Part shown: piece after piece, positions 49,540-50,394 of the stretch
How the letters are laid out: every line of letters begins with the position of its first letter
Numbering within the stretch: position 1 is the stretch's first letter
Sequence record: OQ223305.1
Source of the DNA: Escherichia phage EO1
DNA length: 64,000 nucleotides
Direction: 5' to 3' (one strand)
Notes under the pieces: model-generated
What the model was told of the DNA's origin: nothing
The model's database searches: none
What the model saw: the letters and a program-made list of their open reading frames with translations, nothing else
Made by a program: the position numbers and the translations under genes

Positions 49540-49994
49540 TGGAATTTAAAGACTTTTCAACGGGTCTTTATGTAGCAGCTAAGTTTTCAGAATTAACACT
49601 TGATGCGCTGGAAGAACTTCAGCGCTCTTTACGTGTTCCTAATCCAGTTCCTAGAGAAAAAATTCATTCGACCATATGTTATTCAAGAGTAAATGTTCCG
49701 TATGTTCCATCAAGCGGAAGTTTTGAAGTAGCTTCTTCTGGACATTTAGAAGTATGGAAAACACAAGATGGATCGACTCTTGTACTTGTGCTAGATTCTG
49801 AATATCTGCGCTGTCGACACATGTATGCGCGGGCACTAGGTGCTACACATGATTTTGATGATTACACACCGCATATAACATTGTCTTATAATGTTGGACC
49901 CTTATCATTTAGCGGTGATGTACAAATTCCGGTCGTATTAGATCGTGAATACAAAGAGCCTCTTAAACTCGATTGGGCAGATGATTTAAAATAA
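49539..49994 (+). CDS. 57B: conserved hypothetical protein gp57B
   Basis: 151-aa ORF immediately after 57A, as in T4. Confidence 0.6.
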
Positions 49995-50014
49995 TTTCAC
50001 AAAGTTGTTTACAT
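49983..50014 (+). repeat. 32-bp direct repeat, copy 1 (gene 3' end plus early promoter -35)
   Basis: GATTTAAAATAATTTCACAAAGTTGTTTACAT is identical at 50313-50344, and the -10 region GTGATACTATTA is also repeated. Confidence 0.8.
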
Positions 50015-50036
50015 GCTGATGAGGTAGTGATACTAT
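50007..50036 (+). promoter_or_regulatory. T4-type early promoter
   Basis: GTTTAC, then 18 nt, then TGaTACTAT. Confidence 0.6.
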
Positions 50037-50066
50037 TATCTCATCAAAATTAATTGGGAAAATAAA

Positions 50067-50324
50067 ATGAAAACTTTCAAAGAGTTTGCTACAAAAACTA
50101 CTATCACTGAATCTTCTCACGGTATGGAAGTAAAGCTTGGAATGGCTTTAGCTGAAGCTGAGCGTCTTTTCTCTCGTATTAAAGAACTTGCTGCTGCAGT
50201 CGATCCTTCATCTTTTAAAGGAGACCAAACTAAAGTTAAAGCACTTTTAGCGTTATGCTCCGATGCAGGAGAAATTGCTAAAAATGGTTCTAAGATGAAG
50301 AAACGATTAGAAGATTTAAAATAA
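50067..50324 (+). CDS. internal protein (IP) family member with capsid targeting sequence (ipI position)
   Basis: 85-aa ORF. N-terminus MKTFKEFATKTTITE-S resembles the recalled IP capsid-targeting consensus MKTYQEFIAE with an IxE cleavage motif. It sits next to 57B, where T4 ipI lies. Confidence 0.6.
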   Translation: MKTFKEFATKTTITESSHGMEVKLGMALAEAERLFSRIKELAAAVDPSSFKGDQTKVKALLALCSDAGEIAKNGSKMKKRLEDLK

Positions 50325-50344
50325 TTTCACAAAGTTGTTTACAT
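50313..50344 (+). repeat. 32-bp direct repeat, copy 2
   Basis: Identical to 49983-50014. Confidence 0.8.
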
Positions 50345-50366
50345 AGGGTTTTAGTTGTGATACTAT
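50337..50366 (+). promoter_or_regulatory. T4-type early promoter
   Basis: GTTTAC, then 18 nt, then TGaTACTAT, then GAGGAG RBS. Confidence 0.6.
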
Positions 50367-50394
50367 TACCCTATCAACTACTGAGGAGAATAAA

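Follow-up and report, generated by a model that had tools for sequence, protein, structure and literature searches.

Predicted early promoter/stem-loop blocks carrying an exact 32-bp repeat bracket the internal head protein gene Ip5 of Escherichia phage EO1 and probably serve as homology for cassette exchange

The internal head protein gene Ip5 of Escherichia phage EO1 is bordered on both sides by exact copies of one 32-bp sequence. With a probability of about 0.85, we interpret these copies as the UP/-35 halves of early promoter/stem-loop blocks that bracket Ip5, drive expression and, at the same time, serve as the homology through which genes in this position are exchanged. The promoter-block arrangement is real and well supported, and it has been known for T-even phages since 1994. 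Public genomes already hold the deletion products that are predicted from the raw EO1 sequence.

The repeat pair and the genes that it borders

The window analysed here, by which we mean the whole 64 kb stretch of OQ223305.1, comes from a Tequatrovirus (T4-like) phage, and its segment 49300-51000 is 96–99% identical to ime09, Ec_MI-02, RB51, AR1 and many others. The gene order at the locus is 1-57A-57B-Ip5-trna.4-trna.3-trna.2-tRNA cluster, with the same layout in T4, GiZh, ime09 and RB15. The gene to the left of Ip5 is annotated as 57B in T4, ime09 and GiZh; the one to the right appears in the T4, GiZh and teqsoen records as trna.4 or a putative membrane protein. Table 1 lists the features of the locus.

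Table 1. Features of the 57B to trna.4 region of phage EO1, in window coordinates
Feature	Coordinates	Strand	Description
57B (Acb1, anti-CBASS phosphodiesterase family), 151 aa	49539..49994	+	Pfam Acb1 PF23474, E 2.6e-60
Repeat copy 1	49983..50014	+	32 bp exact; -60 to -29 of predicted P1 (register inferred from the -10 position)
Predicted early promoter P1	50008..50036	+	-35 TTTACA 50008-50013, TG 50028-50029, -10 TACTAT 50031-50036; predicted +1 A50043
Hairpin 1	50017..50046	+	13-bp stem with G.U pairs, 4-nt loop; encloses TG/-10, overlaps predicted +1
Ip5 internal head protein gene, 85 aa	50067..50324	+	phrog_3499 'internal head protein', E 1e-49, full length
Repeat copy 2	50313..50344	+	32 bp exact; -60 to -29 of predicted P2
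Predicted early promoter P2	50338..50366	+	-35 TTTACA 50338-50343, TG 50358-50359, -10 TACTAT 50361-50366; predicted +1 A50373
Hairpin 2	50343..50374	+	7-bp outer stem ATAGGGT/ACCCTAT, small inner stem; encloses TG/-10
trna.4, 61 aa	50395..50580	+	phrog_1692; relatives annotate a putative membrane protein; conserved anchor on the right of the variable slot

The repeated sequence, GATTTAAAATAATTTCACAAAGTTGTTTACAT, has two matches in total in the 64 kb window when both strands are searched with up to three mismatches, and both lie on the plus strand. A search of 100 dinucleotide-preserving shuffles returned no match to this 32-mer. The pair is not expected by chance, and the two copies, which a first-pass annotation of this DNA had reported as identical, were found to be exact. 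Each copy opens in frame with GAT TTA AAA TAA, so that 57B and the 85-aa ORF both end in DLK-stop: copy 1 opens with the last four codons of 57B (12 nt, 49983-49994), and copy 2 with the last four codons of Ip5. When mismatches are allowed, the repeat finder lengthens the pair to a 69-nt unit with 83% identity (49979-50047 and 50309-50377). Both units contain GTGATACTATTA (50027-50038 and 50357-50368), and each is followed on its 3′ side by a similar RBS/ATGAAA segment.

The repeat arrangement is stable over the sampled timescale. In 14 of the 15 Ip5-bearing genomes examined, the first 31 bp are identical between the two copies. At position 32, which is T or C, the copies match in 12 of the 15 genomes, compared to about 8 expected; we do not claim concerted evolution of the two copies, because the genomes are related and three of them are discordant at this position. 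We also considered whether the DLK-stop codons of Ip5 had recently been copied from the end of 57B, and rejected this because a distant Ip5 homolog, that of L016, also ends in EDLK-stop. The L016 homolog lies in a different flank context, where 57B is 83% identical and the TTTCACAAAGTT segment is missing downstream of the homolog. The DLK-stop tail is therefore old.

Predicted early promoters

Both copies run into a sequence of the form TTTACA-17-TACTAT with an upstream TG, and in a consensus scan these were the only TG-bearing promoter-like sites in 48500-52300. The phage Lutter record carries predicted promoters at both equivalent positions. Based on this consensus, P1 and P2 are predicted to be active as early promoters, and the locus would then consist of two promoter-gene units in tandem, Ip5 followed by the 61-aa trna.4, as the first-pass annotation had suggested.

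T4 early promoters combine an UP element at -40 to -60 with a -35, a TGn and a -10 (Hinton 2010). With the inferred +1 placed 7 nt past the -10, the 32-bp repeat covers -60 to -29. In this register the exact repeat would comprise the UP element and the -35 only, with the TG/-10 forming a separate conserved island inside a hairpin. The A/T-rich region from -60 to -40 contains the stop codon of the upstream gene, and the DLK-stop codons occupy the distal UP position. The repeat had been described as duplicating both the last codons and the promoter; the DLK-stop and the UP/-35 are indeed duplicated, but the -10 of the promoter lies outside the exact repeat. The accompanying observation that the -10 region is conserved in both copies holds, as the presence of GTGATACTATTA in both units confirms.

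We compared the pair with four other early-promoter-like sites in the window. Across the -60 to -29 segment, the pair agrees at 32/32 positions, whereas comparisons involving the four other sites agree at 13–24/32. Downstream of the 32-mer, the pair agrees at 29/54 positions versus 19–28/54 for the other promoter pairs in the window, which is approximately background. Because unrelated early promoters reach 24/32, part of the identity can be ascribed to promoter constraint, but such constraint accounts neither for the perfect identity nor for the sharp boundary at 50014/50015.

Ip5 and its leader

The gene between the repeats is named Ip5 (also ipV) in the records of RB51, RB14, RB15, GiZh and ime09. 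Its leader, MKTFKEFATKTTITE, is encoded by 50067-50111 and fits the IP-family pattern, MKT(F/Y)(K/Q)EF... ending in (L/I)-x-E, with SSHG as the next residues and as the predicted start of the mature protein. The leader of T4 IpI, MKTFKEFTSTTTPVSTITE (followed by A), aligns with it through a shared MKTFKEF..ITE. The first-pass annotation had called the gene ipI-like, which does not extend beyond this leader: in a BLASTP comparison of Ip5 with T4 IpI, the similarity is confined to residues 1-22, and Ip5 has no Pfam match at E ≤ 0.01, including to IPI_T4 (PF11634), against which T4 IpI scores 7e-54. With no IPI_T4 match, a different PHROG and a likeness limited to the leader, we rejected Ip5 as a homolog of IpI and assign the gene to Ip5 (phrog_3499).

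The distant Ip5 homolog of L016 has a different, shorter leader, and its conservation with Ip5 begins at SSHG, which fits processing after I-T-E. By analogy with T4 Ip1-3, and given the IP-type leader with its I-x-E site, Ip5 is most likely a counter-defence protein that is packaged into the head, undergoes trimming and is injected together with the DNA. T4 Ip1, Ip2 and Ip3 each block a distinct GmrSD restriction enzyme.

Cassette content of the slot across relatives

Among the loci of 39 relatives, the hypervariable slot between 57B and trna.4 holds from 0 to 4 IP genes, in at least eight configurations overall. These include an empty slot, single Ip5, IpI or IpVI genes, the pairs Ip5+IpVI, Ip5+IpI (in RB14) and Ip7+IpI (in P922), and the array Ip5-Ip9-Ip7-Ip8 (in RB15). 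In T4, the slot holds ipI and is bounded by the same blocks, which share an exact repeat of 21 bp; in GiZh and L004, two cassettes (Ip5/ipV and IpVI) are accompanied by three blocks. Four cassettes belong to four different PHROGs, each labelled as an internal head or virion protein. The phage collection contains 251 records with the mature part of Ip5, 229 with IpVI and 164 with IpI; the 251 records include two extra places with Ip5.

When EO1 is compared to its closest relatives, homology runs without a break from 57B across the block into the first leader codons, is absent over the body of the cassette, and is regained at the following block and in trna.4. The first-pass annotation had proposed that the repeat provides homology for cassette gain, loss or swap, and had named related genomes as the place where variation in cassette content should be visible. 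The comparison supports the proposal: cassette content varies among the relatives, and it does so exactly at the blocks.

Recombination junctions in natural genomes

We built the synthetic product of a crossover between the two repeats and used it as a query. At least nine sequenced phages contain the predicted deletion junction in a single, uninterrupted piece (A6-6, slur02, slur04, slur11, slur13, bov9_1, bov10K1, PTE-Eco15 and 11B_SA_NWU). In A6-6 and 11B_SA_NWU, the spacer from 57B to trna.4 is base-identical to the prediction, and in slur02 and bov9_1 it differs by two SNPs each. The A6-6 record is 148 kb long, and we considered that its junction might be an assembly artefact; this was set aside, as eight more records of approximately 166–168 kb share the single-piece junction. 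Nor is A6-6 a sibling of EO1 that has freshly lost Ip5. Its flanks are only 96.0% and 98.4% identical to those of EO1, and these are independent genomes.

Other rearrangements also map to the blocks. L035 has the architecture of GiZh and L004 without Ip5, joined at the repeat. In RB14, RB15 and Solly, blocks combine a left half of one type with a right half of another, a mosaic pattern that points to crossovers in the -35 and -10 islands that the types share. A synthetic junction for the reciprocal, tandem-duplication product gave two-piece, non-collinear matches and no single-piece match among the matches listed. The empty-slot junction could equally stem from an IpI-type ancestor, and the genomes are compatible with loss and gain alike. 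Since Ip5 and the perfect repeat persist in about 250 genomes, deletion is either rare or selected against.

Hairpins around the -10 region

In both blocks the TG/-10 is enclosed by a hairpin. As RNA, hairpin 1 folds with -14.8 kcal/mol (z -3.5; none of 200 shuffles folded as well) and hairpin 2 with -14.2 kcal/mol (z -2.2). In EO1, GATGAGGTA pairs with TAYCTCATC and ATAGGGT with ACCCTAT, G.U pairs included. Of the four other early-promoter-like sites that the window contains, three have the same hairpin layout. In a set of 65 distinct blocks taken from relatives, the arms fall into approximately eight families and co-vary (for example, GATGAGGTA/TACCTCATC, GATAGGGTA/TACCCTATC and GGTAGGACTA/TAGTCCTACC). 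Native halves have a mean folding energy of -11.1 kcal/mol, compared to -6.8 kcal/mol when halves are swapped, and the observed value is not attained in any of 2000 permutations, a result that we read as supportive evidence and not as a probability because the blocks are related to each other.

The tolerated G.U pairs point to a structure in the sense-strand RNA. As the 3′ arm overlaps the predicted +1, the fold would be possible only in RNA that reads through from upstream promoters. Neither hairpin is followed by a T-run, and the consensus scan calls no canonical intrinsic terminator there, which speaks against terminators of this type. Most likely, the hairpin insulates or attenuates transcription between the units. 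We regard as doubtful the further idea that the hairpin is a functional RNA or DNA signal that sets the cassette boundaries, which would turn the acb1-IP slot into a structured, integron-like array of injected counter-defence genes whose turnover or insulation depends on the fold in addition to sequence homology.

A model of cassette exchange and its alternatives

Each block consists, in order, of the upstream stop codon within an A/T-rich UP region, a -35, a spacer, a TG/-10 within a hairpin, a short leader, a Shine-Dalgarno sequence and an ATG. In the proposed mechanism, and judging by the promoter consensus, each block would direct immediate-early transcription of the next gene, and every cassette would travel with its own expression signals. 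The near-identical blocks would also offer portable homology to the general recombination machinery of the phage. A cassette would be deleted when the direct repeats on either side of it cross over within a single genome. During a mixed infection, crossovers in the left homology (57B, block and leader codons) and in the right homology (block and trna.4) would replace or add cassettes. The empty, single-cassette and multi-cassette outcomes of such exchange are seen in natural genomes, and we infer that they arise through general T4 recombination between the repeated blocks.

It is unlikely that promoter constraint is the whole explanation, with purifying selection on the UP element and the -35 keeping the copies identical and the cassettes varying by other means. 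The repeat does coincide with -60 to -29, the UP and -35 of the 'uber' early promoters, and both the stability of the pair and its partial resemblance to unrelated early-promoter-like sites are what such selection would produce. However, the identity of the pair exceeds that seen with any of the other promoters, the junctions of empty, single- and multi-cassette genomes fall exactly in the blocks, and mosaics of left and right half-blocks exist. In addition, T4 recombines via far shorter repeats than this one. We consider very unlikely a mechanism in which the hairpin, rather than homology, marks the boundaries, and a dedicated or structure-specific nuclease (attC-like or triggered by a cruciform resolvase) starts excision or insertion. 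We know of no recombinase or integrase at the IP locus. The joints we infer lie in the shared -35 and -10 islands, as homology predicts, the tolerated G.U (G.T) pairs favour a structure at the level of the sense-strand RNA, and general T4 recombination suffices. What speaks for a structure-specific process is that the -10 hairpin is kept in approximately eight arm families by compensatory changes, that the row of small cassettes, each with a predicted promoter, is reminiscent of an integron array, and that Arbiol et al. (2010) speculated on a DNA-binding protein recognising the stems of promoter early stem-loop elements (PeSLs).

The tRNA region next to the slot raises the question of homing endonucleases. 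A GIY-YIG homing endonuclease ORF lies at 51594-52244, 1.0 kb downstream; SegB gives the T4 tRNA region an advantage in inheritance, and flanking sequence is co-converted during homing. Breaks made by such a Seg-type enzyme in the tRNA region of co-infecting phages could start repair tracts that reach the IP slot and end at the blocks. This is extremely improbable as the main cause, since it leaves the intragenomic deletion products and the mosaic half-blocks of multi-cassette arrays unexplained, and the position and presence of the endonuclease differ among phages with the same slot configurations. Homology-mediated exchange between the blocks fits the junction data best, and both hairpin-specific exchange and endonuclease co-conversion could contribute to it.

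On this homology-based reading, the slot beside the anti-CBASS gene acb1 would hold interchangeable genes for proteins that are co-injected with the DNA. Promoter blocks that double as recombination linkers would allow T-even phages to re-assort their counter-defence repertoire quickly, and with it to shift host range. The arrangement may be relevant to phage therapy cocktails and, in engineering, the blocks may serve as natural landing pads for self-expressed payloads.

Comparison with known systems

Integron cassettes lack promoters of their own, and a tyrosine integrase mobilises them by acting on folded attC. The EO1 locus shares with integrons an array of small, exchangeable, adaptive genes between structured boundary elements; it differs in that each EO1 unit has its own predicted promoter and that exchange is best explained by homology. 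Compared to the locus of T4 IpI/IPI* (the GmrSD inhibitor; Pfam IPI_T4), the slot, the flanking blocks and the type of leader, ending in I-T-E, are the same, whereas mature Ip5 is unrelated, has no IPI_T4 match and belongs to another PHROG. Srikant et al. (2022, eLife) found T4 deletions and amplifications via fortuitous repeats of 6–10 bp at many places. Direct repeats around accessory or counter-defence genes are common to both cases, and there the loss of an ip gene alters host range; unlike those repeats, the EO1 repeat is 32 bp long, is recurrent, carries a predicted promoter and is common to many phages.

The PeSLs of RB49/phi1, PST/T4 and nt-1/KVP40 (Arbiol et al. 2010; Comeau et al. 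2014) resemble the EO1 blocks closely. Shared features are a stop codon in an AT-rich region, a -35 and -10, a stem-loop that often overlaps the -10, a Shine-Dalgarno sequence and an ATG. PeSLs also flank nonessential ORFs in hyperplastic regions, and indels between close relatives map to them. For the blocks of RB49/phi1, recombination between blocks has been demonstrated, mini-circles included; terminator activity has been demonstrated only for a GC-rich RB49 stem. The EO1 blocks are not PeSLs in the strict sense of RB49/phi1, which is defined by an E. coli sigma-70 consensus promoter and a GC-rich polyG...polyC stem. Arbiol et al. (2010) described the T-even IP elements as analogs of PeSLs that use T4 early promoters, have weaker, AT-rich stem-loops and may underlie the plasticity of the IP loci. 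They are analogs rather than homologs, and their AT-rich stems lack polyG and polyC, as in EO1. The EO1 blocks show every feature that defines these T-even IP-locus linkers at the level of sequence, namely the locus, a T4-type early promoter sequence, a stem-loop and variable flanked ORFs.

The closest precedent is the work of Repoila, Tetart, Bouet & Krisch (EMBO J 1994), which, according to later papers that cite it and to its GenBank record, describes polymorphism of the T-even IP locus, a conserved leader and conserved promoter/stem-loop flanks, and proposes the shuffling of IP genes. Comeau et al. (2014) repeat the attribution of the IP flanking elements to this paper. GenBank Z35082 (RB15, Ip5-Ip9-Ip7-Ip8; Repoila et al.) contains Ip5 with these flanks. 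Judged by these sources, the locus (57B to trna.4), the gene (Ip5), the leader, the flanking blocks and the shuffling proposal are the same as in EO1, and nothing essential differs. That the exact identity reaches into the last four codons adds, at most, a minor detail to the 1994 work. The natural empty-slot genomes come from sequencing later than 1994, and the added value of our analysis is a clean confirmation from hundreds of genomes, together with an explicit -60 to -29 register for the repeat.

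Hairpins enclosing the -10 region at other early-promoter-like sites

Beyond the two promoter blocks that flank Ip5 (each a predicted T4-type early promoter with a hairpin around its -10), three early-promoter-like sites in the window have a -10-enclosing hairpin, with folding energies of -17.6 to -20.9 kcal/mol and z-scores of -3.7 to -5.4. Because these other sites share the arrangement, it is a general feature of early promoters in this phage and is not peculiar to the hypervariable IP slot between 57B and trna.4. The early-promoter-like site at 54343-54397 is without such a hairpin (z = +0.7). 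No early-promoter/hairpin block is present directly upstream of the internal protein gene at a second locus, whose product begins with the leader MKTYQEFITE.

Coordinates of the features discussed
Feature	Sequence	Position	Details
Antisense ORF	window	49986-50120	minus strand; 44 aa; spans promoter block 1
'direct repeat sequence8 possible binding site of StbAB'	GiZh (L001)	2578-2588	11 bp; GiZh record annotation only
Mosaic block	RB14 (L053)	1247-1318	
Mosaic block	RB15 (L052)	683-742	
Mosaic block	Solly (L043)	1336-1393	
Early-promoter-like sites with -10-enclosing hairpin	window	2766-2820; 58388-58440; 61491-61545	
Internal protein gene, second locus	window	58869-59342	157 aa; phrog_3155 'internal virion protein'
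GIY-YIG homing-endonuclease ORF	window	51594-52244	phrog_314, E 3e-55
tRNAs flanking GIY-YIG ORF	window	51350-51589; 52250-52945	

Promoter blocks in relatives

The mosaic blocks of RB14, RB15 and Solly each combine the left arm of one type with the right arm of another, joined at the invariant -10. In the RB14 block, an A-to-G substitution lets the left arm pair again with its foreign right-hand partner. The spacer types ATAGGGT+TTTAG and TTTTAG+ATAGGGT are the same pair of segments, permuted. Many more distant relatives have no promoter block before their first IP gene, which overlaps the stop codon of 57B in the sequence ATGA (overlapping first post-57B genes: L005, L010, L014, L017, L020-L026, L028-L031, L036, L037 and L039). 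In these phages, translation of the leading cassette appears to be coupled to that of acb1 (57B), and the cassette does not appear to have a promoter of its own.

Annotations over promoter block 1 and in the Ip5-IpVI spacer

The antisense ORF, whose counterpart is annotated as CDS ar1_148 in the phage AR1 record, is probably a spurious call over an intergenic promoter. The putative StbAB site of GiZh falls inside the Ip5-IpVI spacer, with no visible support for its label.

The tRNA cluster

The window's GIY-YIG ORF sits between tRNA-Gly and tRNA-Ser, a position that is occupied by tRNA-Pro in T4, GiZh and ime09; among the 10 genes of the window's tRNA cluster, ARAGORN detected none for tRNA-Pro. 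The segB gene of T4, in contrast, is located at another site, between tRNA-Ile and tRNA-Arg.
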